The notes beneath the pieces were generated by a model. The model did no database searches, was not told the DNA's origin, and worked only from the letters and a program-made list of their open reading frames with translations. A DNA stretch of 64,000 bases from a virus (Duplodnaviria > Heunggongvirae > Uroviricota > Caudoviricetes): the IMG/VR virus record IMGVR_UViG_3300035034_002381, positions 1 through 64,000 of that record. One strand, given 5' to 3'. Below are positions 10,979-43,196 of the stretch, in pieces. Numbering within the stretch: position 1 is the first letter of the stretch; each line of letters opens with the position of its first letter. Both the position numbers and the translations under genes were made by a program.

Positions 10979-10983
10979 CTATC

Positions 10984-19195: not shown

Positions 19196-19213
19196 AAAAT
19201 AATTTCATAATAA

Positions 19214-26081: not shown

Positions 26082-26085
26082 AAAT

Positions 26086-26562: not shown

Positions 26563-26973
26563 ATGAAAGCCTTTACTTATGTTATAGATATTGATGACAC
26601 TATCAATATTACCGATAGAGATGAAAATAATATAGGACTGTATTCTCAGTCTCGGCCGATACTTAAAGTTATCAATAAAATTCGAAGACTTAAAAAAGAA
26701 GGCCACAAAATCATACTTTTTACTGCTAGAGGTATGCGTACATTTAATAATGATGTCAAAAAAATCGAAGATTTTCATAGAGAAACACTCGTTAAATGGT
26801 TAAATGACCATGAAGTCCCTTATGACGAACTACAGTTCGGTAAACCATGGGGCCCCCATGTAATATATGTCGATGATCGTGCTGTTACTATTAACCAATT
26901 TGTTTTGGGTGGTCCCGAAAATCACAGAAGTTATACACACATTAACAAAACAGTTATAAATGATGAATTATAA
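26563..26973 (+). CDS. HAD-superfamily phosphatase
   Basis: motif I VIDIDDTI, motif II ILFTARG, motif III/IV K...YVDDR. Confidence 0.65.
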   Translation: MKAFTYVIDIDDTINITDRDENNIGLYSQSRPILKVINKIRRLKKEGHKIILFTARGMRTFNNDVKKIEDFHRETLVKWLNDHEVPYDELQFGKPWGPHVIYVDDRAVTINQFVLGGPENHRSYTHINKTVINDEL

Positions 26974-28660
26974 AGTAATTATTCCCGCGGCAGGGAAGGC
27001 ATCAAGACTCAAGCCTTTATCTTCTTCAATGTCAAAATCAATGGTGCCAGTAAATGGTAAACCAATAATTTCATATATTCTTGATCAACTGTTTGAACTA
27101 GGAAATCCATTTCAAATAGTTATTGTTGAAAATGAGCTCGGTGATATTCAAGATTTTGTTAAAAACGCATATCCAAATTATTATGAAGAATCCCGTATTC
27201 TTTTTGCAACTCAAAAAGAAAGGTTAGGTCCTTTGCATGCTATTGAAATTGGTGCAAATAGGTTTCCGGAAAATGATAACATGCCAATTATGGTTTGGCT
27301 CGGAGATACAATCTGTTTGGAAATGGGTGAGTTGCCAGTTAATGAATCTTTATTAATTACATCGCCTGTCGCCGATTATAAAAGATGGTGTTTAGTAGAT
27401 AACGAGAATGTCTTCTATGATAAACCAGATAACAAACCAAGCACTAACCAAGCTTTAATAGGTATATATTATTTCCATGATTTTAAGGCCTTCTACGAGG
27501 CCCTAGATAAGGGAATGCAAGCTCCTATGATTAAAGATGAACATCAAATATCGGCTTTATTAGAAGCATATAAAAAACAACATATATTCAAAATCAGAAA
27601 AACTGATGAATGGTTTGATTGTGGTGAGTTACATACATTTTATGAATCTAAAGCAAGACTTCTTGGAAGATCTGCCAGGTCATTTAATAGTCTAGAAGTA
27701 AATACATTCCATAACACAATTACTAAATCTTCATTAACATTCGAAGGTAAACTGAAAATTGAGAATGAAAAAAATTGGTATTTAGGTTTACCTGAGAATA
27801 TTCAGATTCTCACACCTAGAGTATTAAAATCAAATTCAGGTACGCTAGTTATGTCGCAAGAACCTGGAACACCTCTTAATGAAATGTGGCTTTATGAGGA
27901 TTTGACTGATGATACATGGAAAAGAATAATTGATAAAACGTTACTTATACACAATAAAATTTTCTATCAATCTAGATATATTCCTAAATCTTCTAAATTA
28001 GATAGATTTGCTGCAAGAAAGGAAATGTATCTGACTAAAAATATTGACAGATTGACAGAAATTTCATTCCTGCCTTTTGCACAGAAAAATATAAAAATGA
28101 TTCGAGATTTTGTGCGGGTTACTGGTGAATTATTAATTGAAGATGAAGGTCGTTGGTCGCCACATTTTCATGGAGATTCTCACATGGGTAATATTTTATT
28201 TGAACCTTTACAGGGAAGTATGAAATTTTTGGATCCACGTGGAAAGTTTGGAAATATCGTAGGCATTGAGGGCGATATGTATTATGATATGGCTAAAATT
28301 GCGCAAGATTTTCTTTTACGCTATCCTGAAATTTTATCTGGTCATTATCATTTTAGTGGAGATAATTTTGACCAGCTTGAATTTTATAGAAATGACGAGA
28401 GATCTAAAACTATGCTAAAACATTTCAGAAAAAGAATTGGTGAATATGGTTATATTCCTAATCTTGTTTTAATGTTAGCAACTGTGCTTATCATAACTTG
28501 TATACCTTTTCATAAAGACGATCCAGAAAGACAAAAAGCATTTTGGTATATGGCAGTAAATGTTATTAAAGAAAGAGGGTGGAATATCCAACTCGAAGAT
28601 CATCTCAAAAAACAAAAATTACAATTATCAGACAAGATACATAATCTATACAACTTATAA
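26960..28660 (+). CDS. bifunctional nucleotidylyltransferase (N-terminal) / APH-fold small-molecule kinase (C-terminal): LicC-LicA-like or MurU-AmgK-like
   Basis: N-terminal IIPAAGKASRLKPLS...KSMVPVNGKPII is an NTP-transferase signature; C-terminal HGDSHMGN (H-x-D-x4-N), FLDPRG and GDMYYDMAKI resemble choline/aminoglycoside kinase motifs. Confidence 0.65.
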   Translation: MMNYKVIIPAAGKASRLKPLSSSMSKSMVPVNGKPIISYILDQLFELGNPFQIVIVENELGDIQDFVKNAYPNYYEESRILFATQKERLGPLHAIEIGANRFPENDNMPIMVWLGDTICLEMGELPVNESLLITSPVADYKRWCLVDNENVFYDKPDNKPSTNQALIGIYYFHDFKAFYEALDKGMQAPMIKDEHQISALLEAYKKQHIFKIRKTDEWFDCGELHTFYESKARLLGRSARSFNSLEVNTFHNTITKSSLTFEGKLKIENEKNWYLGLPENIQILTPRVLKSNSGTLVMSQEPGTPLNEMWLYEDLTDDTWKRIIDKTLLIHNKIFYQSRYIPKSSKLDRFAARKEMYLTKNIDRLTEISFLPFAQKNIKMIRDFVRVTGELLIEDEGRWSPHFHGDSHMGNILFEPLQGSMKFLDPRGKFGNIVGIEGDMYYDMAKIAQDFLLRYPEILSGHYHFSGDNFDQLEFYRNDERSKTMLKHFRKRIGEYGYIPNLVLMLATVLIITCIPFHKDDPERQKAFWYMAVNVIKERGWNIQLEDHLKKQKLQLSDKIHNLYNL

Positions 28661-28670
28661 AAAACATACT

Positions 28671-28949
28671 ATGAGCAAAGATTTAGAAAAAGCTAGTGAG
28701 ACACTAGAAGAAACATTGACAGATATCCAAAAGGTGGCAGCTGCTAATTTTTATGATATTGTACAAATTAGTTTAGCCGATAAAGAAGGTAAAGTAGTTG
28801 GTAAAGCTTCTATGAAATATGAAGATATTTTAGCAATGACTAAGATGCATACACAAGATTCTTCACACGTTGTAGGAATGTTATTTCATGCAGTCGAATC
28901 AGAAACTCGTAACAAATTACGAGAAGAAAAAGAAAATGAAGCCAAATGA
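28671..28949 (+). CDS. hypothetical protein
   Basis: start trimmed to MSKDLEK to avoid a 100-nt overlap with the previous gene. Confidence 0.55.
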   Translation: MSKDLEKASETLEETLTDIQKVAAANFYDIVQISLADKEGKVVGKASMKYEDILAMTKMHTQDSSHVVGMLFHAVESETRNKLREEKENEAK

Positions 28950-29134
28950 TTTTTAAAGTAAGAGTAGAAGAAAAGAGCATAGAAGATGTTATAGAACTTA
29001 TTGAAACAGGAGAAGGGAAAAAAGGTCTCCAATTTGATCTATATAATGAAAAACCATATTTTTCACATGTAGAAATTTTCGTTAATACTGATGATTTCTA
29101 CACATTAAAGGATTATTTAAATGAACAAACCTAA
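28946..29134 (+). CDS. small hypothetical protein
   Basis: 62-aa ORF, ATGA overlap. Confidence 0.5.
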   Translation: MIFKVRVEEKSIEDVIELIETGEGKKGLQFDLYNEKPYFSHVEIFVNTDDFYTLKDYLNEQT

Positions 29135-31064
29135 GACTATATGTCTTGTTATGATTGTAAAAAATGAGGCAAAAAATTTACCTCGTTGTTTTTCTACGAT
29201 CAAACATATTATTGATTATTGGGTAATTGTTGATACTGGTTCAACTGATAACACACAGGAAGTTATACAGAAAGAGTTAGCCGATATTCCTGGTGTATTA
29301 ATGGAAAGACCGTGGGTCAATTTTGGTCATAATAGATCCGAATCTTTGGCTTTTGCTAAAAACAGAGCAGATTATCTTTTGCTTTGTGATGCTGATGAAC
29401 AAATTATACCTACACACAATTTTGACAAATCTGAGTTGACTCTTGATCAATATCATTTAAGATATAATGGGAGCTTAGATTATATGGTTCCTTATCTTAT
29501 TAAGTCTAATTTGGCTTGGAGATTTGTAGGAGTTACCCATGAATTTTTGACAGCAAGTGACACAAAATCTTCAGGTGAGATTAAAAGCCTTTCAATTAAA
29601 GATTGGGGAGATGGTGGAGCAAAATCTGATAAATTTGAAAGAGACATTAAATTGCTCGAACAAGGTTTGATTGATGAACCGAAGAATGTTAGGTATATGT
29701 TTTATCTAGCAAATTCTTATAAGAATACTAAGGATTTTGATAACGCAATCAAATGGTATAAAAAACGTATCGATGCAGGGGGTTGGATAGAAGAAGTTAC
29801 ATGTTCATATGAATATATGGGAGGATGTTATCAGCAGAAAAATGACCACGGGAATGCGATTAAAACATGGATAGATGGTTATGAATTTAATCCTTCTCGT
29901 GCTGAGTGTTTATATGAGGCAGGTAAATTACTTCGTGAAGAAAATAAGAATAGAATAGCTTACGAATTTTTACAAAAGGCTAAAGAAATTCCATATCCTA
30001 CTAACGATAGATTATTTATCAAAAGAGATGTTTATGAATATTTGATAGATTATGAACTGACTATTTGTGCATATTATGTTAAACCAGAATATGATATGAC
30101 CGAGACATTTAAAAGGCTAATCTTTTGGCCAAGTCATTTACAACAAAACATTATACAAAATTTTAAGTTTTGGGCTAAAGATTTGAATACACTTATAGGT
30201 CAAGAGGAAAGTATGATCTTGGCTAAAGATTTGATTAGTAATGATTTGGTTGAGGGTTTTACACCTAGTTCCCCATCAATTCTTTTTCATAAAAATCGCA
30301 AGTACATAAATGTGCGCCAAGTATCATATAAAATTGACGAAAATGGTAAGTATTTAGATCGTGCAAGTGGAGGTCATTGTAAACATGTGAATACAATTAA
30401 CACAATGTATTGGACTGATGGACCCTCATATGACACGGAAAATTTTAAACCCAATGATATTTCTACTAAACATGTGAATGGTATTGAAGATCTAAAACTA
30501 TATACACACAATGGAGTAATCAAATACACTGGGACAAAATGGTTGGATTATAACAAAATTTCTATAGTTATTGGTGAGTATACTAAAGAAGGTCTAGATA
30601 ATTATGCTATTCTAGAGTCTCCAGAAGGAAGGAATGTTGAAAAAAATTGGGTACCGTTTGGATTAGATAATGAAGAACTTTTTGTATATGATTGGAATCC
30701 AATAAAAATTGGAAGAATCAAAAATAATAAACTAGTAATCAAAAATTTAAAAACTAGTTTTCCTAACTTGCGTGGATCAGCTCCTGGTAAACTTATTGGA
30801 GATCATATCTATTTTTTATGTCATTTTGTAGAATATTCTACACCAAGAATTTACTATCATATCTTCATTAAAATGCATAAAGATAATTGGGAAAAAATCG
30901 AGATTTCTAAACCGTTTGTTTTTGAAAAACCACAAATAGAATATTCAGTAGGATTTGATTATAATATTAAGACTGATGATATACATATTGCATATAGTGT
31001 AAATGATTCGAATGCAAGAATCAAATCTTATTCACAAACACAATTTCAAAAACTTTTTACTTAA
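29121..31064 (+). CDS. GT2-family glycosyltransferase with TPR region and large C-terminal domain
   Basis: ICLVMIVKNEAKNLPRC...VIVDTGSTDNT...LLLCDADE is the GT2 (SpsA-like) pattern; TPR-like YMFYLANSYKNTKDFDNAIKWYKKRI. Confidence 0.65.
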   Translation: MNKPKTICLVMIVKNEAKNLPRCFSTIKHIIDYWVIVDTGSTDNTQEVIQKELADIPGVLMERPWVNFGHNRSESLAFAKNRADYLLLCDADEQIIPTHNFDKSELTLDQYHLRYNGSLDYMVPYLIKSNLAWRFVGVTHEFLTASDTKSSGEIKSLSIKDWGDGGAKSDKFERDIKLLEQGLIDEPKNVRYMFYLANSYKNTKDFDNAIKWYKKRIDAGGWIEEVTCSYEYMGGCYQQKNDHGNAIKTWIDGYEFNPSRAECLYEAGKLLREENKNRIAYEFLQKAKEIPYPTNDRLFIKRDVYEYLIDYELTICAYYVKPEYDMTETFKRLIFWPSHLQQNIIQNFKFWAKDLNTLIGQEESMILAKDLISNDLVEGFTPSSPSILFHKNRKYINVRQVSYKIDENGKYLDRASGGHCKHVNTINTMYWTDGPSYDTENFKPNDISTKHVNGIEDLKLYTHNGVIKYTGTKWLDYNKISIVIGEYTKEGLDNYAILESPEGRNVEKNWVPFGLDNEELFVYDWNPIKIGRIKNNKLVIKNLKTSFPNLRGSAPGKLIGDHIYFLCHFVEYSTPRIYYHIFIKMHKDNWEKIEISKPFVFEKPQIEYSVGFDYNIKTDDIHIAYSVNDSNARIKSYSQTQFQKLFT

Positions 31065-32362
31065 TGTACATTATAAAAAACAATAAACTTGAATCTACTG
31101 ATAATATCGATTTATTTTTTAATGAGATAAATGTTGGACAACATATTGCTAAATATGGATATTTCGAAAGTGACCTTATTAATTGGTTAAAGCTTACATA
31201 TAAAAATAATGATAAAATCTTTTTAGATTTAGGAGCGCACATAGGTTCATATTCAATAGAATTAGCAGAAAATTTTCATTCAGTTCATTCATTTGAACCT
31301 AATCCAACAGTCTATAATCATTTATGTGCTAATGTTGCATTAAAGAGATTATCAAATAGGGTATTTCCACACAGAGTTGCATTATCGGATAATAAATCTA
31401 AACAGCCATATTATGAGAGATCCAAAGATGGTGGAGGTAATGGAATTGAAGTTGTAAGAGAGAACGATAAGCACTCATTCTTTGTAGAATCTAAATGTTT
31501 AGATGATTATTCTTTCGATAAAGAAATCGGTTTGATTAAAATTGATATCGAAGGTCATGAGTATAAAGCTATTTTGGGTGCATATGAAACTTTGAAAAAC
31601 TCATATTTCCCACCTATAATTTTCGAATCTTGGGCGCAAAATACACACCCAGAATATTCACAAGAAATACTTTTAGAAATTCGTGATAAAACATTTGATG
31701 TATTAAAGGATTATGGATACACTGTTAAATCCATAAGTGGATATAATGAAATGTTTATTGCTGTTCAAGAGCGTGAAAAATCTCAAGAAGATATTATTGT
31801 TGAAGGTCTTTTGACAGATAAGTTAGACGTATGGCTTAACTCACCTGGAGGGACTCGAAGCAATTATATAGCCGATGTTCTAGAAAAAAGTAATTTAAGA
31901 GTGAGAAACGAATCCTGGTATAAGTATGGTTGTCATTGGACTTCTCCTTTATTTGAAAGGGAATTTAAAACTACAAGATTGTTTTGCTACACTAGCGATA
32001 TCGGACTCGCATTGACAAGTCAGTTAAATGCCAATACTATTGATAAACTGAATTTTGCAGATTTTTATAATGAACCATGGGATTTATATCGATGGATACA
32101 AAATATTAAAAAACAAGTGATTAACTGGTCGGATCCTGGCGTATTCTTTTTAAATACCGACTATTTAAATGATAAAGATATTCAGTCTGAATTTAAAACT
32201 CTTACTGGAGATAGTTTAGACATATCAGATTTCAGACTTGACCGTAAATCTAAAAAATTACATCCTGCATTAATACAATACATGGATGAGATTAATGAGA
32301 TTAATGAGTTATTAGCAAAATTACCTAATGCCGGTTTTGGCGGAGAAGTTGATGAAGGTTAA
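31064..32362 (+). CDS. FkbM-family methyltransferase with extra C-terminal domain
   Basis: DLGAHIGSYSIELAE...VHSFEPNPTVYNHLCANV...KIDIEGHE. Confidence 0.6.
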   Translation: MYIIKNNKLESTDNIDLFFNEINVGQHIAKYGYFESDLINWLKLTYKNNDKIFLDLGAHIGSYSIELAENFHSVHSFEPNPTVYNHLCANVALKRLSNRVFPHRVALSDNKSKQPYYERSKDGGGNGIEVVRENDKHSFFVESKCLDDYSFDKEIGLIKIDIEGHEYKAILGAYETLKNSYFPPIIFESWAQNTHPEYSQEILLEIRDKTFDVLKDYGYTVKSISGYNEMFIAVQEREKSQEDIIVEGLLTDKLDVWLNSPGGTRSNYIADVLEKSNLRVRNESWYKYGCHWTSPLFEREFKTTRLFCYTSDIGLALTSQLNANTIDKLNFADFYNEPWDLYRWIQNIKKQVINWSDPGVFFLNTDYLNDKDIQSEFKTLTGDSLDISDFRLDRKSKKLHPALIQYMDEINEINELLAKLPNAGFGGEVDEG

Positions 32363-32366
32363 AAAT

Positions 32367-32580
32367 ATGAAATTAGAAATTGATTTTAGTTTGAGCGATT
32401 TAAAAAATAATTGGAAACCAAAAATTAAGATTTGGTTATCATGGGAGTACTAAAGGTGATAAGATAGAATTTGAAATGTATTTTGATGAATATCACAGTG
32501 AATGGACTTCTTTTAAAGATAAAGCGTTTAAAGGATTTGTTCTTAAAAAAATAGATAGAATATTAGACGAAAATTGTTAA
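32367..32580 (+). pseudogene. frame-split small gene
   Basis: MKLEIDFSLSDLKNNWKPKIKI... stops at 32451-32453 while another frame continues GYHGSTKGDKIEFEMYFDEYHSEW... to 32580; the junction lies in an A-rich run. Confidence 0.3.
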
Positions 32581-32621
32581 AAGTCAAATATTTTGATTAT
32601 ATTTATCCTAAATTAATAACA

Positions 32622-32741
32622 ATGGAATATAAATATAATGAGCTGGAAAAACTTCTTATTCTTATGGGTAAAAAATATCCAAATGACCATGATCTTGGCA
32701 ATCAAGCGCGTAAACTTATTCAAAAGATCAAAGAAAAATAA
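32622..32741 (+). CDS. small hypothetical protein (possibly frame-split, continuing to 32817)
   Basis: 39-aa ORF after ttttgattatattta; another frame continues KFNPIADWRPLTEEELKSNLFKPPF and ends in a TAATG junction with 32817. Confidence 0.35.
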   Translation: MEYKYNELEKLLILMGKKYPNDHDLGNQARKLIQKIKEK

Positions 32742-32816
32742 ATTCAATCCAATAGCTGATTGGAGGCCGTTAACTGAGGAAGAATTAAAGTCAAATCTTT
32801 TTAAACCACCCTTTTA

Positions 32817-33455
32817 ATGAACATATTTGTTCTTGACGAAAATGTCAAAAAATGTGCCGAATATCATTGTGATAAACATGTTGTCAAAATGATTACTGAG
32901 CATAATCAAATTTTGGGTTCGATTTCTTATTTACGTAGAGGTATTTCTAAAAAATCGGAAATAACTGATGAATTTATTCAACAACATTTCCAAAATTTTC
33001 CTAGAAAAAAATTAGCAATTGATATGGATTCATTACCCATTGCTGATCATTCGCCACTTATCAAAAAATTATGGAATTTTGTAAAACCCGCAGAATTGTC
33101 TTGGCCGTACGGTATTGGTTATAAAAATCATCCATGTACACAATGGGCTAATGCGTCTAAAGAAAATTATGATTGGCTATGCTCACTCAATCTTGAATTG
33201 TGTAAAGAATATACTAAACGATATAATCGTCGACATGCTGGTGAGGATATTACTCAATGGTATATTGAAAACGCACCATATCTACCGAATTCTGGCATGA
33301 CTCCATTTGTTTTAGCTATGCCTGATGATTGTAAATCTGATGATCCAGTTGAATCTTATCGAATTTACTACATTTATCATAAATATAAATTTGCCAAATG
33401 GAAAACAAAAGTTCCAAATTGGTATATAAACGTTATAAAACATCAAGAAATATGA
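32817..33455 (+). CDS. conserved hypothetical protein (N-terminus MNIFVLDENVKKCAEYHCDKHVVKM)
   Basis: 212-aa ORF; the N-terminal block looks like a widespread phage and giant-virus family whose function I cannot name. Confidence 0.7.
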   Translation: MNIFVLDENVKKCAEYHCDKHVVKMITEHNQILGSISYLRRGISKKSEITDEFIQQHFQNFPRKKLAIDMDSLPIADHSPLIKKLWNFVKPAELSWPYGIGYKNHPCTQWANASKENYDWLCSLNLELCKEYTKRYNRRHAGEDITQWYIENAPYLPNSGMTPFVLAMPDDCKSDDPVESYRIYYIYHKYKFAKWKTKVPNWYINVIKHQEI

Positions 33456-34009
33456 CAATCAAACACAGAATAACTGATTCTGAAAATACCCATGTTATGC
33501 TCGACATAGAAACTTTGGGTACTGGTGCTAATGCAATCATTTTACAGATTGCAATGGTCAAATTTGGTCTTAACGATCAAAATGGTGAAACAATGAAAAC
33601 TATAGTTAATGTTTTTCCTTGTATCAAAGAACAACATGATGAAGGTAGAACAATGACTTTCGATACAGTTAACTGGTGGCTTGGTCCAGATCATGTGAGC
33701 ATATTAGCAAATCTGCGGAAACAGGAAACATCCAATTTGGTAGATGTTAGATCTCAAATAGCTAAGCACATGGAAGAATTTAGGAAATCGGGAGTTCATC
33801 TGTGGGCAAGGTCACCCAAATTTGACATCAAGATTTTAGAAGATTTTTTAGGAACAGATGTGCCAGAACATTCCCGAAGGCACCAAAGAGATGTTAGAGA
33901 ATATGAATTTATTTCGGGCGATCGCCCAGGTGCATCCCATGATGCAGAAGATGATTGTATTCAACAAATTATATTAGTCACTAATGTTATTCAAAGACTT
34001 TTTATATGA
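33452..34009 (+). CDS. DEDDh 3'-5' exonuclease (DnaQ-like)
   Basis: VMLDIETLG (Exo I) and ASHDAEDDC (H-x4-D Exo III); start set at the ATGA overlap with the previous stop. Confidence 0.65.
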   Translation: MTIKHRITDSENTHVMLDIETLGTGANAIILQIAMVKFGLNDQNGETMKTIVNVFPCIKEQHDEGRTMTFDTVNWWLGPDHVSILANLRKQETSNLVDVRSQIAKHMEEFRKSGVHLWARSPKFDIKILEDFLGTDVPEHSRRHQRDVREYEFISGDRPGASHDAEDDCIQQIILVTNVIQRLFI

Positions 34010-34122
34010 TAACCTCGATAGTAGAAATTATTAAAGAATCTCTAATTGGTAAATCAGTTATAGTTGCCGAGTATTACCCGGATAACAATGAGGGAAATTA
34101 CAAATTCTAAAATAAAGTTAAC

Positions 34123-35022
34123 ATGATATCAGAAGAAAAATTTCCCGATGGACAAATTAATTTTAAAGCAAATACAGAGGACATCAAAAGTCTTTTAACA
34201 CCACCATACATTTTATCAAATGATAATGCGATAAATTTTACAATTGATCTAAGTAACTGGGATAAATTTCAAACTTTGTTGGCAGCCAATGCAAAATTTA
34301 GACAAACGCACAAACAAATTAATTTACATATAGGTTATCTTTTTGGTTCAAGAAGTGACCGTAAATTTGAACATGACGGAATTAACTATTTTCGTGATGT
34401 AATTGCTAAAACAATCAATGATCAAAATTTCAACAAAGTTACTGTATTTGATCCACACTCACTTGCAGTAGAAAATGCAATTAATAATTGTGAGAGTATT
34501 CATCCGTTCCCACAAATCAATCACCATTTTTTAAATATGGTTGGAAATTTAGATTTATCTGAATATGAAATTGTTATAGCGTCTCCAGACCTTGGGGCAT
34601 ACAAAAAAGTCTTTGGAATTTTTGCTAAATTTTCCGAAAAATATCCAAACATACATTTTAATTTTATTTCCGCAAATAAAATTCGTAGTCTGTCTGGTGA
34701 TATTTCTATGGTTTTAAATCCACCATATAAAGAATTTGACAAATCAAAAAAACGAATTCTATATTTAATTGATGATATTTGTGATGGCGGGAGGACCTTT
34801 ATAGAATTTGCTAAACTTCTTAACGAAGATTTTGAGAAAAAGTATCTATATGTATCACATGGAATATTTTCTAAAGGTCTTGATCCATTATTAGAACATT
34901 TCGATAAAATTTTTACTACAAACAGTATTTCGAATACTTATATCAAATATCTAACAAACGATAATACCATTCTAAATTCTAACATTCTTTTTACCACATT
35001 TATTTCGCAACGCAATGAATAA
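34123..35022 (+). CDS. ribose-phosphate pyrophosphokinase (Prs)-like enzyme; candidate ADPR-pyrophosphate synthetase (Adps) of NARP1
   Basis: 299 aa; VFDPHSLAVENAI resembles the Prs DLHA loop, and YLIDDICDGGRTF is a type I PRPP-binding loop. Confidence 0.6.
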   Translation: MISEEKFPDGQINFKANTEDIKSLLTPPYILSNDNAINFTIDLSNWDKFQTLLAANAKFRQTHKQINLHIGYLFGSRSDRKFEHDGINYFRDVIAKTINDQNFNKVTVFDPHSLAVENAINNCESIHPFPQINHHFLNMVGNLDLSEYEIVIASPDLGAYKKVFGIFAKFSEKYPNIHFNFISANKIRSLSGDISMVLNPPYKEFDKSKKRILYLIDDICDGGRTFIEFAKLLNEDFEKKYLYVSHGIFSKGLDPLLEHFDKIFTTNSISNTYIKYLTNDNTILNSNILFTTFISQRNE

Positions 35023-35989
35023 AAAAGCAACAATTCTTCTTGGACTGCCATTAGCAGGCAAGTCGACTTATATAGGAAACAGAATAGAATATGGTGATTG
35101 GTCAGACACAGGATTAGTTTTAGTATCTGCAGATGATCTTAAAGAAAATCATGAAGATTATGATCCCGACCATGCGTATAAAATTCATGAGTGGTCAGTT
35201 AAAGAGGCCGAAAGGCAAATGAAAGAATACTCAGAATTTGGATCAAAACACATTATCATGGACGGTGGTGGCATTAACAATTCATATACTCGTAGAATTA
35301 TGTCTGATCTACGTTTAAAAGGTTATGAAATTGAACTTATACATATTAAAACGCCGCTCCAAGTTTGTCTTCTTAGAAATGAGAAGCGGGTCCGCAAAGT
35401 TCCAGTGCATGATATTGTAACAAAGGCAGCTCGAGAACGTAAACAATATGAGATACTTAAAGATGTTGTAGATAGTGTTACTATAGTTCCATATTTCACA
35501 AACAAACATATTTTTATAGATATGGATGGAGTTATTGCGGGACAGTCTGTCTTGCCAGAATTTGAAGGAAAAATAGATTTTGTTAATAGCGAAATTTTTA
35601 CTATTTTACCACCTGTTCATCAAGTTATTGATAAACTTAATAGTCTTGATTCTGAAAAACATACACTTTATATTTTATCAGCAACACCGAATTCATATTC
35701 GTATACTGAAAAACATGATTGGTTAGATAAACATTTTAACATACCAAGAGAACGCAGATTTTTTGTAAATGCTGGAAAGCATAAAGCAGAAATGTTAGAA
35801 AATCTAAGAATAAAACTCAAAACTGATAAACGTGATGTCACTCTGATTGAAGATACGCACTCGACACTTAAAGATGTTAGAGACCTTAGAATGAATCCAA
35901 TACATGTATCTGAATTTTTATCAAATGATTTTTTGCGAGATGAAGAATTATATGACTATAAATATTACGAAAACCCAAATAATAAATAA
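35015..35989 (+). CDS. P-loop kinase fused to HAD phosphatase (T4 polynucleotide kinase/phosphatase-like architecture)
   Basis: GLPLAGKST Walker A; IMDGGGINNSYTRR and RNEKRVRKVPVHDI parallel T4 Pnk ISDTNLNPERR and RNSKRGTKAVPIDV; C-terminal FIDMDGVIA is a DxDG HAD motif. Confidence 0.5.
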   Translation: MNKKATILLGLPLAGKSTYIGNRIEYGDWSDTGLVLVSADDLKENHEDYDPDHAYKIHEWSVKEAERQMKEYSEFGSKHIIMDGGGINNSYTRRIMSDLRLKGYEIELIHIKTPLQVCLLRNEKRVRKVPVHDIVTKAARERKQYEILKDVVDSVTIVPYFTNKHIFIDMDGVIAGQSVLPEFEGKIDFVNSEIFTILPPVHQVIDKLNSLDSEKHTLYILSATPNSYSYTEKHDWLDKHFNIPRERRFFVNAGKHKAEMLENLRIKLKTDKRDVTLIEDTHSTLKDVRDLRMNPIHVSEFLSNDFLRDEELYDYKYYENPNNK

Positions 35990-35995
35990 AAAGAT

Positions 35996-37714
35996 ATGAG
36001 AAAAATGAACGCTTTCTTAGCAACCGATGGTTATAAAACAGGCCATCACATAATGTATCCTGAAGGAACTATTGAGGTATATGATAATTTAACACCCCGC
36101 AGTTTTAAATACGCAATCAACAATGTCGAGTATGTTATTGCTGTGGGTCAAAAAATGGCAGTCACAGAAATCAACGATATGTTTAACGAAACATTTTTTA
36201 GACATGAAGATGTTGAAAGACTTGCCTTTCATTTATTTAGACAAGGATTACCTGAACAAAAAGCTAAAGAAACCGCAAGAAATAAAATTAAAGCCGAAGT
36301 ATGTAGTGAAATCAAAAAGGAGTTTTCGTTATATCTAGATATGAAATATGATGTTTCGCATATTGAAAGACTTTGGGATTTAGGATATCTTCCTGTAAAA
36401 ATAAAAGCTTTACCAGAAGGTGTAAAGGTCCCAATAAAGGTTCCTGTACTTACAATTGTAAATACTTTGCCAGATTTTTTCTGGTTACCTAATTTCTTGG
36501 AGACTATTATTTCTAATTTGTTATGGAAACCTATGACATCTGCAACTATTGCGTACGAGTTCAAGAAAACTTTGACTAAATGGGCAATGAAAACTGATAG
36601 CAAAAATGTTTCTATTGTAGAATTTCAGGCACATGATTTTTCAATGCGAGGAATGGATTCTATTTATGCTGCTGCTTCATCAGGTTTAGGTCATGCATCA
36701 TCATTCCTTGGAAGTGATACAATACCAGTAATTCATGCAGCAAGATATTATTATGGTGATCAAGGTCCTATTATACATTCTGTAAATGCTACAGAACACA
36801 GTGTCATGTGTGCTGGAGAAAAAGATAGTGAAATTGAAACATTCAGACGATTATTGCGTCTTTTCCCGACAGGAATCTTATCAGTAGTTTCTGATACTTG
36901 GGATTTATGGAAAGTGATAGTAAAATATCTTCCTGAATTAAAGGACGAAATTCTAAAAAGAGCAGGAAAACTGGTTATTAGACCTGACTCTGGAAATCCT
37001 GTTGATATTATTTGTGGTTTTGATCATAATAGATTTGATACACACGAAGAAGCAGAAAAATATTATAGAACTTATGGAATAAAAGATCCAAAATACTATG
37101 TAAAAAACGAATTCTTTACTGTAATTTCACATTCAGGCAACAATTTTAAATATGCAGATTTAGAAGAGACTCCTGCTGATAAAGGAGTCGTGCAATTATT
37201 ATGGGAAATCTTTGGAGGGCAAATAAATGAAGATGGATTCAAAGTTTTAAATGAACACATTGGCGCAATTTATGGTGATAGTATTAATTTCGAAAGAGCA
37301 AATCAGATTTGTGAGAGACTAGCCAGCAAAGGATTTGCGACTACAAACGTTGTACTTGGAATAGGATCCTTCACATATCAGTATAACACTCGTGATAACC
37401 ATGGATTTGCCGTTAAAGCTACTCATATAACTATTCAACATCCTGATGGAAAAATGGAAGAAAGAGACATATTCAAAGACCCACTAACATCGGTAGGTAC
37501 AAATAAAACTAGTGCTAAAGGATTTATTCAAGTACTTAAAGAAAATGGAGAGTATATTATGAGAGATCAGGTTAGTAGAGAACAAGAAGAAAATTCTTTA
37601 CTTACAATGATTTATTTAGATGGTAAAGTTCTTTCCGAAGACACACTCAAAAGTATTCGTAGAAATGTGAATAACGAATTGGCTGTTGAATTAGGATTAT
37701 ATGAAGTAGCATAA
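35996..37714 (+). CDS. nicotinamide phosphoribosyltransferase (NAMPT/NadV)-like enzyme; candidate Namat of NARP1
   Basis: N-terminus LATDGYKTGHHIMYPEGT matches the NAMPT TDSYK..H pattern; 572 aa, longer than typical NAMPT. Confidence 0.65.
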   Translation: MRKMNAFLATDGYKTGHHIMYPEGTIEVYDNLTPRSFKYAINNVEYVIAVGQKMAVTEINDMFNETFFRHEDVERLAFHLFRQGLPEQKAKETARNKIKAEVCSEIKKEFSLYLDMKYDVSHIERLWDLGYLPVKIKALPEGVKVPIKVPVLTIVNTLPDFFWLPNFLETIISNLLWKPMTSATIAYEFKKTLTKWAMKTDSKNVSIVEFQAHDFSMRGMDSIYAAASSGLGHASSFLGSDTIPVIHAARYYYGDQGPIIHSVNATEHSVMCAGEKDSEIETFRRLLRLFPTGILSVVSDTWDLWKVIVKYLPELKDEILKRAGKLVIRPDSGNPVDIICGFDHNRFDTHEEAEKYYRTYGIKDPKYYVKNEFFTVISHSGNNFKYADLEETPADKGVVQLLWEIFGGQINEDGFKVLNEHIGAIYGDSINFERANQICERLASKGFATTNVVLGIGSFTYQYNTRDNHGFAVKATHITIQHPDGKMEERDIFKDPLTSVGTNKTSAKGFIQVLKENGEYIMRDQVSREQEENSLLTMIYLDGKVLSEDTLKSIRRNVNNELAVELGLYEVA

Positions 37715-37755
37715 TGGAACAAGTTACATAATTTTCTAAAATAAACTGATTCTAT

Positions 37756-37790
37756 TAAAACTTTTCAAGTCTAGATTAATATAAAATATA
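37756..37790 (+). promoter_or_regulatory. TAAAACTTT ... TAATATAAAATATAATG promoter-like motif
   Basis: immediately upstream of 37791. Confidence 0.45.
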
Positions 37791-39107
37791 ATGAAAAGAT
37801 CTGGTATTAAAGTAGCGGTATTTCCCATGGGTTCAATTATCCGATTTAGGAAAGATGGAATCAAAAGATCGTTTGGTCGTTTAGAATATTATAATTTGAT
37901 TTGGGCGTTGGCCAGAAATCCAAGTATTTCGGAAATTTGGCTTTTACAAGTTTCTGATTGGGAACAATTGACTGATGATGAAAAAATTGATTTTGATCCT
38001 AGAAAAGTTATTCGTAACATTTATGCGGAATTTAAAGTAGACAAACCTAATAGTAAAAAACAAGAATCTTACGCTGATCTTTGGAACAAAATTTCTCATC
38101 TTAAGCAACCTGATTTTGCAATTGTATTTTCTACACAAGGTCTTACTAGAATTTCTATACCAAATATTATACCTAAAGTAAAAAATCCTGAAGAAAAAGC
38201 TAAATGTTTAGAAATGACAATACGCTATTGTTCTTCACAAATGTATTATCTAAACAATTCAGAAATTCCATATTTTTTGGTAGTTAATGATGGCAGATTT
38301 TTGTATACTAATACACATACAAAATATCTGGATATGTTTAATTTACCCAAAGAAATCATGGGATTTTACAAAAATGATGATTATATACTTCATCATTATG
38401 ATAAAATGCCGGATGATGGTGGCAAAATGACTACTGATGTTGTTAAGTTATCATACAGTAAAATGATTTGGCTTAATAATATCAGTGAAAAAATCATAGA
38501 CCCTGCCAACATAGAGAAAACTGAAAAGTTTTCTATTGTAGCTATGCAGGCAGCTTATGGTAAAGATAAACATGATCCTAGATATTCTATTCTAAAGGAG
38601 TGGTTTTTAGACGTAGATGGAAATGAAGATGTTTCGATTTATGGTAAATGGGGAGAATCTTATGTTAAAGATTATCAACATTTTAAAGGCTTAAAGCCAC
38701 ATACTGAAATTGATGAAATTTTCAAGAAAACTAGGTACACATTATTGATTCCAACAGAACCTTTATGGGTAACTACGAAAATATGTGAGATGTTGAAATT
38801 GGGTGTTGTCCCGTTTTTGCATCCTAGTTATGATGAAAAAAATCTATCATTTGGAGAGGATTCATTTTTTAGAGTAAAAAATCCGGAAGATTTAAAAAAG
38901 AAGATTTCATTTTTAGAAAAAAATCCAGATAAAAGAATCAAGCTCATACAAAAGGCTCAAGAAAAATATATGGAAGGTGTCACAAACGGAACTTGTGTCG
39001 TCGACGCAATTAATCCATATCTTCAACGGGCTAATATTGATGTAGAATTGCAACATGGATTTAGTGATGAACTAATTCGTAAGCGCAAAGTTAAAAAATT
39101 ATTTTAA
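37791..39107 (+). CDS. GT-B-like glycosyltransferase, possibly T4 beta-glucosyltransferase-like (tentative)
   Basis: 438 aa; C-terminal layout FSIVAMQAAYGKDKHDPRY...YTLLIPTEPLWVTTKICEMLKLGVVPFL...FFRVKNPEDLKKKISFLEKNP resembles the T4 BGT C-terminal half from memory. Confidence 0.4.
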   Translation: MKRSGIKVAVFPMGSIIRFRKDGIKRSFGRLEYYNLIWALARNPSISEIWLLQVSDWEQLTDDEKIDFDPRKVIRNIYAEFKVDKPNSKKQESYADLWNKISHLKQPDFAIVFSTQGLTRISIPNIIPKVKNPEEKAKCLEMTIRYCSSQMYYLNNSEIPYFLVVNDGRFLYTNTHTKYLDMFNLPKEIMGFYKNDDYILHHYDKMPDDGGKMTTDVVKLSYSKMIWLNNISEKIIDPANIEKTEKFSIVAMQAAYGKDKHDPRYSILKEWFLDVDGNEDVSIYGKWGESYVKDYQHFKGLKPHTEIDEIFKKTRYTLLIPTEPLWVTTKICEMLKLGVVPFLHPSYDEKNLSFGEDSFFRVKNPEDLKKKISFLEKNPDKRIKLIQKAQEKYMEGVTNGTCVVDAINPYLQRANIDVELQHGFSDELIRKRKVKKLF

Positions 39108-39110
39108 ATT

Positions 39111-40319
39111 ATGAAGAATAAATTTTCTAAGGATGGACATTGGAGATTCGGTACTATAGTTCCATTAATCGGGGGAATGACCATATCCAACCAACAAGCA
39201 ACCGGAGATAATCCGGACTTTTTAATATCTTATCCAGCGTTTGCAGGCAATGATTCTCATTGTGTTAATCATTTTAAAGATACCCCATATTATGTAGTCG
39301 ACCCAGAAACTAATGAATTACCTGAAGACGATACTTTTCAAAATGTAGATTTTGTGTCTGCAGTGTGCCCATGTGCAGGACTTTCTATGTTAAATACTTC
39401 TAAGAAAAGAGGATCTGATGCAGAAATGAATAATTGGATGTATAAATCTGCAGAATTAGTTTTAGAACAAATTAAACCCAAAGTTTTTTGGGGGGAGAAT
39501 GCACCAGGTCTATATACAAAATCTGGTGAAGGTGTAGTCAAAAAATTGAGAGAAATTGCTGAAAAGAATGGTTATGTACTTTCATTAGTCAAAACTAATA
39601 CCTTTTTACATGGTATACCACAACATAGAACTAGAACTTTTTACTTTTTTTGGCAAGGTAAACATGCGCCAATACTGAATTATACCGAGCGGGATGCACC
39701 AACTCTTAAAGAATATCTAGATCAAATTCCTGAAAATGCTTCTATGCAAGATGAAAAATTCGGCTTAGAAAGTATGAATAGTCTTTGGTTTAAATTCTTA
39801 AAAGATCAAAACATAAAAATTTCAGATGTACAAAAAAGTACGTGTAAATCAATTATGGATTATTGTGTAGCCGAAAAATTGATGCCGAAAATGGTTGATT
39901 GGGGTGAAGAAAATGGATATGATAAAATGGTCAGGACTGCTAAGCATATTCTACATAAACAATCTATGGGTAAAGGTTGGTGGGACGCTACACCATTAGT
40001 ACCAACAGATACTATTAATGCGCTGATTAGTAAGAATGCTGGAATTGTCCACCCGAACGGAGAAAGACCAATTAATACCCGAGAAGCTTTATGGTTAATG
40101 GGATTACCACATGATTTTACTATGGTCGATTATGACAATAGAAAAAATAGCAATCACATTTGCCAAAACGTACCGGTAACCACTGCAAAAGACTGGACAT
40201 TCGAAGTGATGAAATTTATCAATAAAGATATTGAAAAAATTGCAACGCCGTTTCTAAAACAAAACAATATCAAACAAAGAATAGATTTACAAGAAAATAA
40301 ATCCAAAGCACTTTTTTAA
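39111..40319 (+). CDS. DNA (cytosine-5) methyltransferase-family enzyme
   Basis: motif IV AVCPCAGLS, motif VI FWGENAPGL, motif VIII GIPQHRTRTFYF. Confidence 0.75.
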   Translation: MKNKFSKDGHWRFGTIVPLIGGMTISNQQATGDNPDFLISYPAFAGNDSHCVNHFKDTPYYVVDPETNELPEDDTFQNVDFVSAVCPCAGLSMLNTSKKRGSDAEMNNWMYKSAELVLEQIKPKVFWGENAPGLYTKSGEGVVKKLREIAEKNGYVLSLVKTNTFLHGIPQHRTRTFYFFWQGKHAPILNYTERDAPTLKEYLDQIPENASMQDEKFGLESMNSLWFKFLKDQNIKISDVQKSTCKSIMDYCVAEKLMPKMVDWGEENGYDKMVRTAKHILHKQSMGKGWWDATPLVPTDTINALISKNAGIVHPNGERPINTREALWLMGLPHDFTMVDYDNRKNSNHICQNVPVTTAKDWTFEVMKFINKDIEKIATPFLKQNNIKQRIDLQENKSKALF

Positions 40320-40321
40320 AT

Positions 40322-41761
40322 ATGAAACCTTTATTTGTAATAGAAGACGAAATACAAAATAAGTCTAATATATTCGAACTAATTAATCCACAAAAATTAG
40401 ATCCGAATAAAAAGACTATATTAATAATCACATACAAAAATTTTGCTGGTGATTTTGACTATATTTATGGATTTAATCACAAGATTATTGAATTATTAAA
40501 AGATCAATATAATATTGTATTTGCTGGAAAGGAAATTAAAAAGAATGTCATCGATATAGATAATTTCTATTTAATTGATATGAAAGGTTATACGAGTTTA
40601 AATCAGAATAGATTTAAGCGCAAAAAAGAAGATCCTAACAGTAACCAAATTAACAGAAATATTTTATGGGAAGAATTTGAATCTGCGTTCGGTGATTTAG
40701 AAATTGATTTAATTTTTTATGCGACACCAGAGTATGCGATTTTACCTCATGGTAAATCTTATCATAAAGATTTCAAAGAAATACAAAACGAAATTCATGA
40801 TTATGTAGGCGCAGATACTAAAAAGATTCAGCGTATTAACGAAATTATGTACGATATCTATGAAAATTATGATACCCATGCATCTATTTTAATGTTTTCT
40901 GCCTGGCATAAAAATGTCATGATGAACTTGCCGGTTTTTCTAAAAGAAAGAAATTCGTTTAAAGTCATTGCATTTTCTATTGATCCTGCAAATACTTATC
41001 GATATTTGGAACACCATGGAATAGAATGTACCAATTTTTATTTTGAAGAAGATAAACGTGGTACTCGCAATTTCGAAAAATTTCCAATAGCACATCTTCA
41101 ACATTTAATTTTTGAAAACAACGAAAATCCTACAGAAAAATATAGTTTAGAAAAAACTACAGATTTTTTCTTTATGGGAACGATTATTCAAGAAAAGGGA
41201 AGTAGAATGCAGATGTGGTATGAATTTTTATCAGATTTAAAATTAGACGATAAATCTAATTTTTGGATCCCAATTAAACATAATGGAATTTACCGAACTA
41301 AAAAACAAGAAACTAGTGGTCATACCAAAAAGGGTTTACAGATTATTGATGAAAAATTCACAGACATTAAAAATGCTATCATAAATCATCCCAATTTTTC
41401 TGGACATTTATTACCATCAGAAGTCAAAAAACATATTGTAGCTTATAAATATTCATTAGTATTGCGATGTGTTTCTATTTATGATAGTCTAAATTTTAGA
41501 CCTATTTATTATGTTTATTTAAACATTCTTCCATTTTTAGATCATATGTATGATCCAGATTATTTACAGATTCCTAAGAAATTTCAAGACAAATTAGCAG
41601 TATCTAATTCACGAGATATCGAGGATAGAATCAAATATTATAATCAAAATCCAAAAGAAAGAATTCAGTTATTAAAAGAAATGAGAGAGTTTTTTGAAAT
41701 AGACGAGTTTTTAGAAGATTGGAAAAACATAACACTAAAACATATAGATCATGCTAAATAA
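40322..41761 (+). CDS. paralogous GT-B-like glycosyltransferase (tentative)
   Basis: 479 aa; FFFMGTIIQEKGSR...KYSLVLRCVSIYDSLNFRPIYYVYLNILPFL...AVSNSRDIEDRIKYYNQNP has the same layout as 37791. Confidence 0.35.
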   Translation: MKPLFVIEDEIQNKSNIFELINPQKLDPNKKTILIITYKNFAGDFDYIYGFNHKIIELLKDQYNIVFAGKEIKKNVIDIDNFYLIDMKGYTSLNQNRFKRKKEDPNSNQINRNILWEEFESAFGDLEIDLIFYATPEYAILPHGKSYHKDFKEIQNEIHDYVGADTKKIQRINEIMYDIYENYDTHASILMFSAWHKNVMMNLPVFLKERNSFKVIAFSIDPANTYRYLEHHGIECTNFYFEEDKRGTRNFEKFPIAHLQHLIFENNENPTEKYSLEKTTDFFFMGTIIQEKGSRMQMWYEFLSDLKLDDKSNFWIPIKHNGIYRTKKQETSGHTKKGLQIIDEKFTDIKNAIINHPNFSGHLLPSEVKKHIVAYKYSLVLRCVSIYDSLNFRPIYYVYLNILPFLDHMYDPDYLQIPKKFQDKLAVSNSRDIEDRIKYYNQNPKERIQLLKEMREFFEIDEFLEDWKNITLKHIDHAK

Positions 41762-42398
41762 GATATTTAAAAGTTTGAGTAATTCTGAAAATGAAGCATT
41801 ATGTGTACAAAGAACTAATCTTTTATTCGAAGCATTAGATATTATAGAAAAACATAATGGGAAAGCTTGGTTAGATTGTGGTACTTTGTTAGGTGCGTAT
41901 AGAGATGGTGAATATATTCCATGGGACGTCGATGTAGATTTAGGAATTAATATCGAGGATGTTACTGAGGAAATGCTAAATGATTTCAGAGATAAATATA
42001 ATATACGACACGATAATGGAAACTTAGATCAATACAAATTTTGCTCATTTTATAAGAGAGATGAAAATGGTGATAATTACAAATTTAGAAGATGTAATTT
42101 ATGGATTGATTTACATATGTACTATCCAAATTATGATGGTACAAGAACTATGACAATTACTACAGGAAAAATTAGAGCACCTAAAAAAATCTTTCCAGCA
42201 CCTGCTGAATGTATCGAGAATTTAGAACAAATTGAATGGCAAGGTAGAAAAGTAAATATTCCTAGTAAAACTGTAAAATATTTAGAACAATGGTATGGAT
42301 ATGATTGGGACGTACCTAACGATAAATGGAAAATGTCTCCGAGTTGGTACGATAATCCAACAAATGACAAAATTATTCAAGGTAAAACCCTCTTTTAA
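41751..42398 (+). CDS. LicD-family phosphotransferase (phosphocholine/phospho-alditol transferase family)
   Basis: KAWLDCGTLLGAYRDGEYIPWDVDVDLGI matches the LicD signature W.d.GTLLGa.R...IPWDdD.D. Confidence 0.75.
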   Translation: MLNKIFKSLSNSENEALCVQRTNLLFEALDIIEKHNGKAWLDCGTLLGAYRDGEYIPWDVDVDLGINIEDVTEEMLNDFRDKYNIRHDNGNLDQYKFCSFYKRDENGDNYKFRRCNLWIDLHMYYPNYDGTRTMTITTGKIRAPKKIFPAPAECIENLEQIEWQGRKVNIPSKTVKYLEQWYGYDWDVPNDKWKMSPSWYDNPTNDKIIQGKTLF

Positions 42399-42416
42399 AC
42401 AAAATAAACAAAACAA

Positions 42417-43178
42417 ATGCATATATTAAATGAATATTTTGACAAGATTTATATTACCAACCTCGACTCGGCCAAAGATAGATATGAAAGATTATCTAAA
42501 GAACTGGATTCATTTGGCGTTGTTTATGAAAGATTCAAAGCATTGACTCCAGATGATGCAAGAAAGGTATTTGCTGAAAAAGGCCTAAAGATTCCTAAAA
42601 GTAATAGTGGAGCTCTTGGTTGCGCAACTTCACATTATATATGCTGTCAACAGGCTGCGAAAAATGGACTTAAAAGAATTTTGATTCTTGAAGATGATGC
42701 AAGAATAACCGATATAGATTTTAATCAAGAGACTCAAAATTTAGTTGAACAAATAAGAAAAACCGACTGGTTTTATCTAAAGCTTGGTTATAATATCACT
42801 AACCAGATGTTAGACGAAAATTTTGAGTTTCATAGAGTTTCAGAAAATTTGTTTAATCTTTCAAAAAGTTCTATGACCACCGCTATAGCTTTCAATATCG
42901 AAAAAATCGTAGAGGATGAGAATGCTTCCACAGTTTTTATTTCTGATCACGCATTAGAAAATAGTAAATTGAATATTCATATTGACCATAGATTGTTTAT
43001 GATGTGTAACGAATTCGGAATTCTACAATGCCATTATTATCCAGCAATATTTACTCAGACTGATGGGTATTCATACATAGGAAAAGAAGAAAGGAAATTC
43101 TCTAATATTGATAAAAGAACAAACAGAATATTCAAAGAGCATATACAATCTTCTAGCTCAACAAAAAAATTATTTTAA
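42417..43178 (+). CDS. glycosyltransferase family 25 (LgtB/Lic2B-like)
   Basis: FDKIYITNLDSAKDRYERL..., GALGCATSHY and ILILEDDARI. Confidence 0.65.
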   Translation: MHILNEYFDKIYITNLDSAKDRYERLSKELDSFGVVYERFKALTPDDARKVFAEKGLKIPKSNSGALGCATSHYICCQQAAKNGLKRILILEDDARITDIDFNQETQNLVEQIRKTDWFYLKLGYNITNQMLDENFEFHRVSENLFNLSKSSMTTAIAFNIEKIVEDENASTVFISDHALENSKLNIHIDHRLFMMCNEFGILQCHYYPAIFTQTDGYSYIGKEERKFSNIDKRTNRIFKEHIQSSSSTKKLF

Positions 43179-43196
43179 ACAAAGAAAATAGAAAAT

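Follow-up and report, generated by a model that had tools for sequence, protein, structure and literature searches.

A kinase-phosphatase gene between Adps-like and Namat-like genes

The window analysed here, a stretch of 64,000 nucleotides (nt) of the phage record IMGVR_UViG_3300035034_002381 of IMG/VR (Caudoviricetes; positions 1 to 64,000 of that record), harbours a block of three co-oriented genes. The middle gene encodes a bifunctional kinase-phosphatase of the T4 Pnk superfamily, and its two neighbours are best read as the Adps and Namat genes of NARP1, a pathway that rebuilds NAD+ from ADP-ribose (ADPR) and nicotinamide (Table 1). We focus on the middle product, hereafter the Pnk-like protein, which is probably an undescribed NARP1 helper enzyme rather than an RNA repair enzyme. 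A preliminary description, made from the sequence alone, had pointed to this open reading frame (ORF), its Walker A motif and C-terminal DMDG HAD domain, its likeness to T4 Pnk and its position between a Prs-like and a NAMPT-like ORF, all of which were borne out.

The ATG start codon of the Pnk-like gene lies within the last codons of the Adps-like ORF, resulting in an 8-nt overlap, and its stop codon is separated from the Namat-like start by a gap of 6 nt. A scan of positions 32300-39200 returned no terminator-like site and promoter-like sites at chance level, and was as such uninformative. Given the overlap, the short gap and the absence of a terminator-like site, the three genes form a tight, co-transcribed block, and the Pnk-like protein is probably translationally coupled with Adps and Namat.

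Table 1. Features of the three-gene block, with the domains and catalytic motifs of the Pnk-like protein
Feature	Position in window (nt)	Strand	Residues	Support or remark
Adps-like (Prs-like) gene, first of the block	34123..35022	+	299	phrog_619, 9e-49
Gene of the Pnk-superfamily bifunctional protein	35015..35989	+	324	ORF calling, Pfam, PHROG, AlphaFold2/Foldseek, hhalign
N-terminal P-loop kinase domain	35015..35464	+	1-150	
Walker A motif GLPLAGKST	35042..35068		G10-T18	
Putative general base of the kinase	35132..35134		D40	
Family signature of the kinase			D83-GGG-INN-x-Y91	
Further kinase residues			R121/R125/R127-K-V-P130	
C-terminal HAD phosphatase domain	35501..35929	+	~163-305	
HAD motif I	35519..35533		D169-M-D171-G-V	
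HAD motif II			S222	
HAD motif III			K257	
HAD motif IV			D280	
C-terminal tail, low confidence, with stop codon	35930..35989	+	~306-324	
Namat-like (NAMPT-like) gene, last of the block	35996..37714	+	572	phrog_448, 8e-172; gene callers start at 36005

Domain organisation and active sites of the Pnk-like protein

Both domains of the Pnk-like protein are genuine. In Pfam, residues 3-142 match Zeta_toxin (7e-8), AAA_33 (4e-7) and KTI12 (5e-5), and the HAD half, with its DMDG motif at residues 169-172 (nt 35519-35530), gives a marginal match to NT5C (PF06941), scoring 22.7 bits with the full-length protein and 25.0 bits with the isolated C-terminal half for a cut-off of 24.8; this match is partial, covering profile positions 59-122 of 180. 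PHROG 505 ('polynucleotide kinase', the family of T4 pseT) spans residues 3-257 with an E-value of 7e-13. The AlphaFold2 model is of high quality (predicted local distance difference test, pLDDT, 91.4; predicted template modelling score 0.88), and its top Foldseek match is T4 Pnk (1ltq), aligned over 313 columns and both domains (E 2e-10). With regard to the individual domains, the solved proteins nearest to the kinase are CthPnkp, PSTK and T4 Pnk, while the nearest sequence relatives of the HAD domain are of the 5'(3')-deoxyribonucleotidase type, namely, NT5C, at the marginal score given above, and 3bwv (1.6e-4, 24% identity).

An alignment of 44 family members shows no or almost no variation at the catalytic positions. 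The kinase set comprises K16, D40, D83-G85-I87-N88-Y91, R121, R125, R127 and V129-P130, and the phosphatase set D169, D171, G172, S222, K233, K257 and D280, K233 being invariant alongside the motif III lysine K257. Judged from this conservation, both active sites, that of the hydroxyl kinase and that of the HAD phosphatase, are intact. After HAD motif I, the family carries a conserved LPxxxGxIDFVN insert. The C-terminal tail is confined to the window lineage and its closest relatives (in the alignment, it is shared by protein P0002 only), and the model loses confidence from about residue 301, pLDDT falling to 80 for residues 301-310, 74 for residues 311-320 and below 50 for residues 321-324.

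A distant homologue of T4 Pnk with altered substrate-binding positions

T4 Pnk (PseT, PHROG 505; PDB 1LTQ/2IA5) and the Pnk-like protein share the same organisation, an N-terminal P-loop kinase followed by a C-terminal DxDxT HAD phosphatase, and have a similar size. The hhalign comparison of the family with T4 Pnk gives a probability of 97.9% and an E-value of 4.8e-13 over 266 columns, covering T4 residues 1-296, and in tblastn, T4 Pnk and gp74 of mycobacteriophage LeBron match family members over their full length. Sequence and fold comparisons thus make the Pnk-like protein a true, if distant, homologue of T4 Pnk across its two domains. The equivalents of the T4 kinase residues K15/S16, D35, R38 (as Lys) and R126 are kept, as are those of the phosphatase residues D165/D167, S211, K258 and D278. 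K16, S/T17, D40 and R125 hardly vary, if at all, within the family, and the position of T4 R38 corresponds to K43 and is mostly Lys or Arg.

The differences are equally clear. The identity to T4 Pnk is only 15-19%, the family has its own DGGGINNxY loop in addition to the LPxxxGxIDFVN insert, and the gene is embedded in an NAD+ reconstitution operon instead of being paired with an RNA ligase. Further, T4 residues R34, T86, R176, R213 and D254, which we take to be the positions holding the polynucleotide or its 3'-phosphate, are not conserved. According to the hhalign mapping, R34 is replaced by the invariant A39, R176 falls on the conserved L-P of the insert, R213 on a variable position (T/I/A), and D254 on a gap; in our own register, T86 is matched by the GGG loop, hhalign having placed this segment differently. 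In T4 Pnk, R176 and R213 serve in binding the substrate phosphate and R34 in contacting the polynucleotide, and the lack of conservation at these three positions points to a different acceptor.

The kinase domain of Clostridium thermocellum Pnkp (CthPnkp), archaeal PSTK and the zeta/PezT toxins including AvrRxo1 belong with the Pnk-like kinase to the AAA_33/Zeta_toxin/KTI12 clade, but their acceptor-binding loops differ, and a HAD fusion in this arrangement is found only in Pnk-type enzymes. The NT5C nucleotidases (PF06941; 3BWV, 6G2N) carry a helical cap after motif I, whereas the corresponding insert in the model of the Pnk-like protein is a short, largely non-helical loop of about 28 residues with a few short strand elements. 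Sequence and fold searches revealed no likeness to NadR-RNK or the NARP3 enzyme Bas30_86, and Pfam and PHROG searches gave no match to a Macro domain (PF01661/PF14519/PF20016, Poa1p-like). Of the three comparisons suggested in the preliminary description, that with T4 Pnk gave the best match, that with NT5C a partial sequence match at the cut-off, and that with NadR-RNK none.

The neighbouring genes are best read as Adps and Namat

The best solved relatives of the Namat-like protein are the SPbetaL1 structures 9W5X and 9W5W (429 bits), which are those of Namat (PMC12774641). Its scores against true Nampt are 208 bits for the Xanthomonas enzyme (7yqo) and about 179 bits for the human one. The Prs-like protein falls below every NCBIfam Prs cut-off (best score 54 bits for cut-offs of 113-518) and is only weakly similar to solved PRPS (E 5e-5). 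It shares 33-36% identity with proteins annotated as 'ribose-phosphate pyrophosphokinase' in FelixO1-like phages and numerous others, a family with 1139 phage records; we take the validated Bas63 Adps to be a member of the FelixO1-like group. The phage family bearing this annotation has been shown to be an ADPR pyrophosphokinase, Adps (Osterman et al.). Catalytic residues of Adps are listed in PMC13586617, and the window protein is assigned at the level of the family. The Adps-like gene lies about 1 kb from Namat, and no NMN adenylyltransferase (NMNAT) or PnuC domain is present among the precomputed Pfam matches for the genes called on a contig that corresponds to about 1-59 kb of the window (NMN, nicotinamide mononucleotide).

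As the transferase is closer to Namat, the Prs cut-offs are failed and no NMNAT domain is found, the block is best read, from sequence, as the Adps and Namat of NARP1, which works on ADPR and ADPR pyrophosphate (ADPR-PP). The preliminary description had placed the gene in an NAD module, between Prs-like and NAMPT-like genes. Its argument from position gains much strength from the association with the NAMPT-like gene described below, but the pathway itself has to be replaced by NARP1, the neighbours not being read as a Prs and a NAMPT that make phosphoribosyl pyrophosphate and NMN. With ADPR-based neighbours, nicotinamide riboside (NR) and NMN, the substrates suggested there, become only one of several candidates.

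Conserved linkage to Namat and phage-only distribution

The survey of GenBank phages, IMG/VR and JGI/ENA metagenomes, completed by contig look-ups, yielded 41 loci with a full-length relative of the Pnk-like protein, representing 21 lineages at 70% identity, 18 of which could be assessed on both flanks. Namat lies within 1.6 kb of the Pnk-like gene in 17 of the 18, whose proteins are 34-60% identical to that of the window, and an Adps-like gene is usually adjacent. With NARP1 present in about 4% of phage genomes (859 pathways among 20,185), a chance adjacency of the two genes is very unlikely.

The gene order is variable. Adps-Pnk-Namat is found in the window and in loci L011, L012, L018, L019, L020, L093, L095, L227, L230 and L318; Pnk-Namat-Adps in L229; Namat-Pnk, with or without a following Adps, in the Lak megaphages, L026/L097 and L027; and Namat-Adps-Pnk in L319. 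In the Leptolyngbya phage Lbo-JY46, the three genes come in the order Pnk, Namat, Adps and are spread over about 6.4 kb, Namat being 1.4 kb away. Overlaps of start and stop codons recur in these loci, for example, in L227 and L319. The carriers are diverse, including T4-like phages, Lak megaphages of Prevotella and the Leptolyngbya cyanophage. In one of the Lak megaphages, Prevotella phage Lak-A1 (L002:5061-7925), the Namat-like frame appears in two tblastn pieces about 1.4 kb apart, while it is continuous in the Lak-like loci L021 and L022; the split could be the effect of an insertion, an intron or recoding.

Protein searches retrieved at least 128 full-length relatives of about 300 residues and 40-73% identity, all with the same fusion and nearly all metagenomic. 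When 1.84 billion cluster representatives were searched exhaustively with a profile, only about 33 full-length clusters at 50% identity emerged and, separately, half-length proteins. These proteins (P0151-P0158 and similar; E 1e-40 to 1e-53) consist of the kinase half only (about 150 residues) or the HAD half only (about 140 residues), so that the fusion may also exist as two separate genes, or they may be fragments. In 185,579 bacterial and archaeal genomes, one per species, no full-length relative was found, only HAD-only ones, and the distribution of the Pnk-like protein is thus phage-only. A near-identity DNA search against phage genomes gave no match.

Accessory genes of NARP1 operons

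A precedent for an accessory enzyme in NARP1 operons exists, since 15% of them carry the Macro phosphatase Adpp, which converts ADPR-1''-phosphate, the aRES product, into ADPR and which, in Vibrio phage Gary, stands between the two other genes as Adps-Adpp-Namat (Osterman et al. 2026, preprint, 10.64898/2026.01.28.702374). The block of the window resembles this NARP1-AP arrangement in being a phage-encoded, minority variant of NARP1 with three genes, the additional enzyme, of phosphoesterase type, being encoded between Adps and Namat or next to them. A difference is that the kinase-HAD fusion is unrelated to Macro and that its predicted kinase activity has no counterpart in NARP1-AP.

Among 65 related loci with both genes, the slot between Adps and Namat is most often occupied by a mini-HAD phosphatase (17 loci), followed by Macro (16), Nuc_deoxyri_tr2 (11), a family without annotation (10) and DUF3307 (4). 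The mini-HAD proteins (IMG/VR loci L232-L311, e.g., L274:4486-4958) have 124-157 residues and the motifs DxDxT, T, K and DD, their best PDB relative being 2obb (3e-8), and are not mentioned in the NARP1 literature examined. They were considered as members of the same subfamily as the HAD domain of the Pnk-like protein, but the hhalign probability is only 35-45% and we treated the two as separate HAD lineages. The Nuc_deoxyri_tr2 protein matches PF15891 at 2e-37, and the unannotated proteins of 161-186 residues have a further representative at L230:2758-3240; genes of these two kinds lie in the same set of loci, e.g., at L276:4244-4737 and L277:3862-4421. The composition of the slot suggests that it is a hotspot for further unreported accessory genes, with the mini-HAD, Nuc_deoxyri_tr2 and the unannotated family as examples.

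The Pnk-like gene occurs together with a separate Macro ORF in L020 and L319 (Macro-Namat-Adps-Pnk in the latter), and with a mini-HAD gene in L027 (Namat-Pnk-miniHAD-Adps). This co-occurrence indicates that it is probably not a simple replacement for either of them, and that it probably handles a different metabolite in a non-redundant manner.

Proposed function

We lean, with modest confidence, towards the Pnk-like protein being a phage-specific member of the T4 Pnk superfamily recruited as a NARP1 accessory enzyme; its operonic embedding, the varied gene orders, its phage-only spread and the Adpp precedent were counted in favour of an NAD-related accessory role. It would act on small nucleotides of the NAD(P)+/ADPR type rather than on RNA ends, both the substrate class and the direction of flux being what we infer, and would adjust their phosphorylation state so that such metabolites enter or leave the Adps-Namat route. 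The HAD phosphatase would take off a phosphate carried on the ribose of a degradation product that is unusable for Adps or Namat, and the kinase would phosphorylate one of the metabolites of the pathway at a ribose hydroxyl.

NAD(P)ases cleave NADP+ to 2'-phospho-ADPR, and as a leading guess, the phosphatase would turn 2'- or 3'-phospho-ADPR into ADPR, and the kinase would convert NAD+ into NADP+ or, alternatively, NR into NMN. The phosphatase of T4 Pnkp removes 2'- as well as 3'-phosphates, which is compatible with such a route, and short-pAgo systems such as SPARTA reportedly also degrade NAD(P)+. Depletion of NADP as well as NAD is documented for the RES-domain toxin NatT (PMC11535050). AvrRxo1, a zeta-toxin homologue, phosphorylates NAD (PMC5491322, PMC5087710), showing that the kinase clade to which the Pnk-like protein belongs can do so.

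A further proposal, which is tentative and which we regard as rather unlikely to hold as stated, is that the Pnk-like protein belongs to a branch of the NAD+ arms race not described so far, where some bacterial immune or toxin system destroys or disables NAD(P)+ and leaves a product in the wrong phosphorylation state. Candidates would be 2'- or 3'-phospho-ADPR, 3'-NADP or a fragment with a 5'-OH nucleoside, and the end-healing logic of T4 Pnk, one phosphate taken off and another put on, would have moved from RNA to the cofactor. If true, NARP1 would be extended to restoring NADP+ or to salvaging unusable fragments.

In the literature searched, no paper connects a polynucleotide kinase with NARP1; the supplement of Osterman 2026 gives Macro neighbours only, and a broad survey of viral NAD and ADP-ribose systems mentions no such fusion beside NadV. 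NAD+ depletion is among the commonest anti-phage strategies of bacteria, and NARP1 with its Macro extension constitutes a phage metabolic repair. A second, unrelated accessory enzyme in the same operon of very different phages implies that, against some host chemistry, NARP1 does not suffice by itself, and the Pnk-like protein offers a handle for discovering this chemistry. If the proposed function is correct, it would represent a clear case of an RNA-repair scaffold reused for cofactor repair.

Points against an NAD-related role and competing explanations

Several observations weigh against a NARP1 accessory function. As regards linkage, the one exception is a lineage of T4-like phages (P0004/P0008, 10 loci), in which an intact Pnk-like gene lies at least 6-10 kb from any NAD gene and is surrounded by DUF723, DUF7487 and HNH genes. 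None of its contigs is among the best 80 IMG/VR Namat loci; a NARP1 may yet lie elsewhere in its genome. Nor does the Pnk-like gene occur in any of these 80 loci, retrieved as the most similar to that of the window by an alignment-based scan of viral contigs with the window Namat. The gene is therefore dispensable for NARP1 and is a rare add-on, not a core part of the pathway. As regards chemistry, every one of the solved proteins closest to the kinase domain has a nucleic-acid or tRNA-bound hydroxyl as its target, and NAD+ and ADPR have no free 5'-OH, so that a Pnk-like regiochemistry has no direct fit. Finally, an RNA ligase lies 4-6 kb from the Pnk-like gene in L019, L023 and L318, and the genome of Mycobacterium phage LeBron (L312, 47085-55384) encodes in a row a Prs-like protein (gp71), a Nampt-like protein (gp72), a small ORF product (gp73) and a canonical T4-like Pnk (gp74), with the RNA ligase gp85 located 3.4 kb further downstream. 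This layout indicates that proximity of a Pnk to NARP1 can arise in early-gene or anti-defence regions without a shared chemistry. As a side observation, Pnk-type enzymes thus also adjoin NARP1-like pairs in the cluster L mycobacteriophages to which LeBron belongs.

These last points are those on which the strongest competing explanation builds. According to it, the Pnk-like protein is a true polynucleotide 5'-kinase/3'-phosphatase, i.e., a divergent PseT, that heals the ends which host anticodon nucleases or other RNases leave on tRNA or mRNA, and stands beside NARP1 only because both are carried in counter-defence islands. We judge this unlikely while taking it seriously, T4 Pnk being the best two-domain structural match and a full-length homologue whose family, PHROG 505, and kinase catalytic set are shared. 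The ligase-bearing loci and the Prs-Nampt-x-Pnk series of LeBron are in line with it, as is the number of tRNA genes in the window genome, 21 by ARAGORN and 16 by Rfam, where the preliminary description had counted more than 25. L318 also encodes the anti-Gabija protein Gad2. This locus (L318:6834-15873) looks like a counter-defence island: it contains Adps, the Pnk-like gene, three small ORFs and an unusually long Namat (831 residues, with tblastn matches in separated pieces), then Gad2 (PF26128) and a T4 Rnl1-type ligase (PF09511).

On the other side, an RNA ligase is found within 10 kb of the Pnk-like gene in 3 of the 21 lineages only, compared with 17 out of 18 for Namat. The search for a ligase suggested in the preliminary description was negative for the window in the precomputed Pfam matches, in PHROG and in tblastn with queries of three RNA ligases; a divergent ligase, or one elsewhere in the genome, may exist. 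The complete 125-kb genome of Lbo-JY46 likewise has none by tblastn with the three ligase types or by annotation. Further, shared islands leave unexplained the start/stop overlaps with Adps and the persistence of the association across permutations of gene order, and the T4 positions R34, R176 and R213 are not conserved in the hhalign mapping.

The RNA-repair toolkit that the preliminary description saw scattered through the window is weakly supported. The DEDDh exonuclease claimed at 33452-34009 (ORF 33398/33452-34009) is real, with a Pfam Rv2179c-like match at 9e-18, but it stands beside the NARP1 module in one other lineage only, L012. The supposed 2H phosphoesterase at 8274-8636 is a 120-residue ORF, much shorter than usual members of this group; it does have two HxT motifs (HMTI and HITI), but its only named family match, to tRNA_lig_CPD of fungal tRNA ligases, is sub-threshold (17.8 bits for a cut-off of 23, over 26 residues), and the other signal is to phrog_36523, of unknown function (1.9e-5), with no match in NCBIfam. 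RNA healing has much less contextual support than the NAD-related role. As to the tRNA genes themselves, the array at 229-10979 contains duplicated Met, Tyr, Ile, Val, Thr, Arg and Ser genes and three Leu genes, and one tRNA-Ile call (588-676) is unusually long, with 89 nt.

A second, improbable explanation, which is the NR/NMN option of the preliminary description, sees in the Pnk-like protein a 5'-kinase for NR or another nucleoside fused to a nucleotidase. Alongside NARP1, the kinase would provide the NMN adenylyltransferase of the host with NMN made from NR. Among acceptors, a nucleoside 5'-OH comes chemically nearest to the Pnk reaction, the best relatives of the HAD domain are of the deoxyribonucleotidase type, and phages use NR kinase chemistry in NARP3. 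However, no similarity to NadR-RNK or Bas30_86 was found, the window region covered by the Pfam matches has neither NMNAT nor PnuC, the partner genes are ADPR-based and not NMN-based, and a 5'-kinase and a 5'-nucleotidase acting on the same nucleoside would constitute a futile cycle.

The third, for which we see equally slim chances, is that the HAD domain is a non-orthologous replacement of Adpp, producing ADPR from ADPR-1''-phosphate to counter aRES, with the kinase in an accessory or regulatory role: the gene sits in the same slot as the Adpp of Vibrio phage Gary and HAD phosphatases recur there, but the co-occurrence with Macro and mini-HAD genes implies a non-redundant activity, for which reason this explanation was demoted from the main one, and the invariance of all kinase catalytic residues fits poorly with a merely regulatory domain. 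A nucleoside monophosphate or adenylate kinase recycling the AMP made by Adps was rejected, as a hydroxyl kinase is indicated both by the closest relatives and by an invariant Asp that follows strand 2; adenylate kinase matches reach only E 0.3-0.7.

Wider context of the window

The NARP1 block lies within a long run of sugar and methyl-transfer genes (26960-43976), including NTP_transferase, Glycos_transf_2, Methyltransf_21, Glyco_trans_1_2-like, a DNA cytosine methylase, LicD, Glyco_transf_25 and PS_pyruv_trans, which may represent a DNA or surface glycan modification module. A SET-domain ORF is located at about 26041-26505, and a Nudix ORF (48873-49403; PF00293, 1e-5) 11 kb downstream of the NARP1 block. 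Positions 17120-21007 carry T4-type head genes, namely, a prohead protease (Peptidase_S77) and the Gp23 major capsid protein, which identify the window as that of a T4-like phage.

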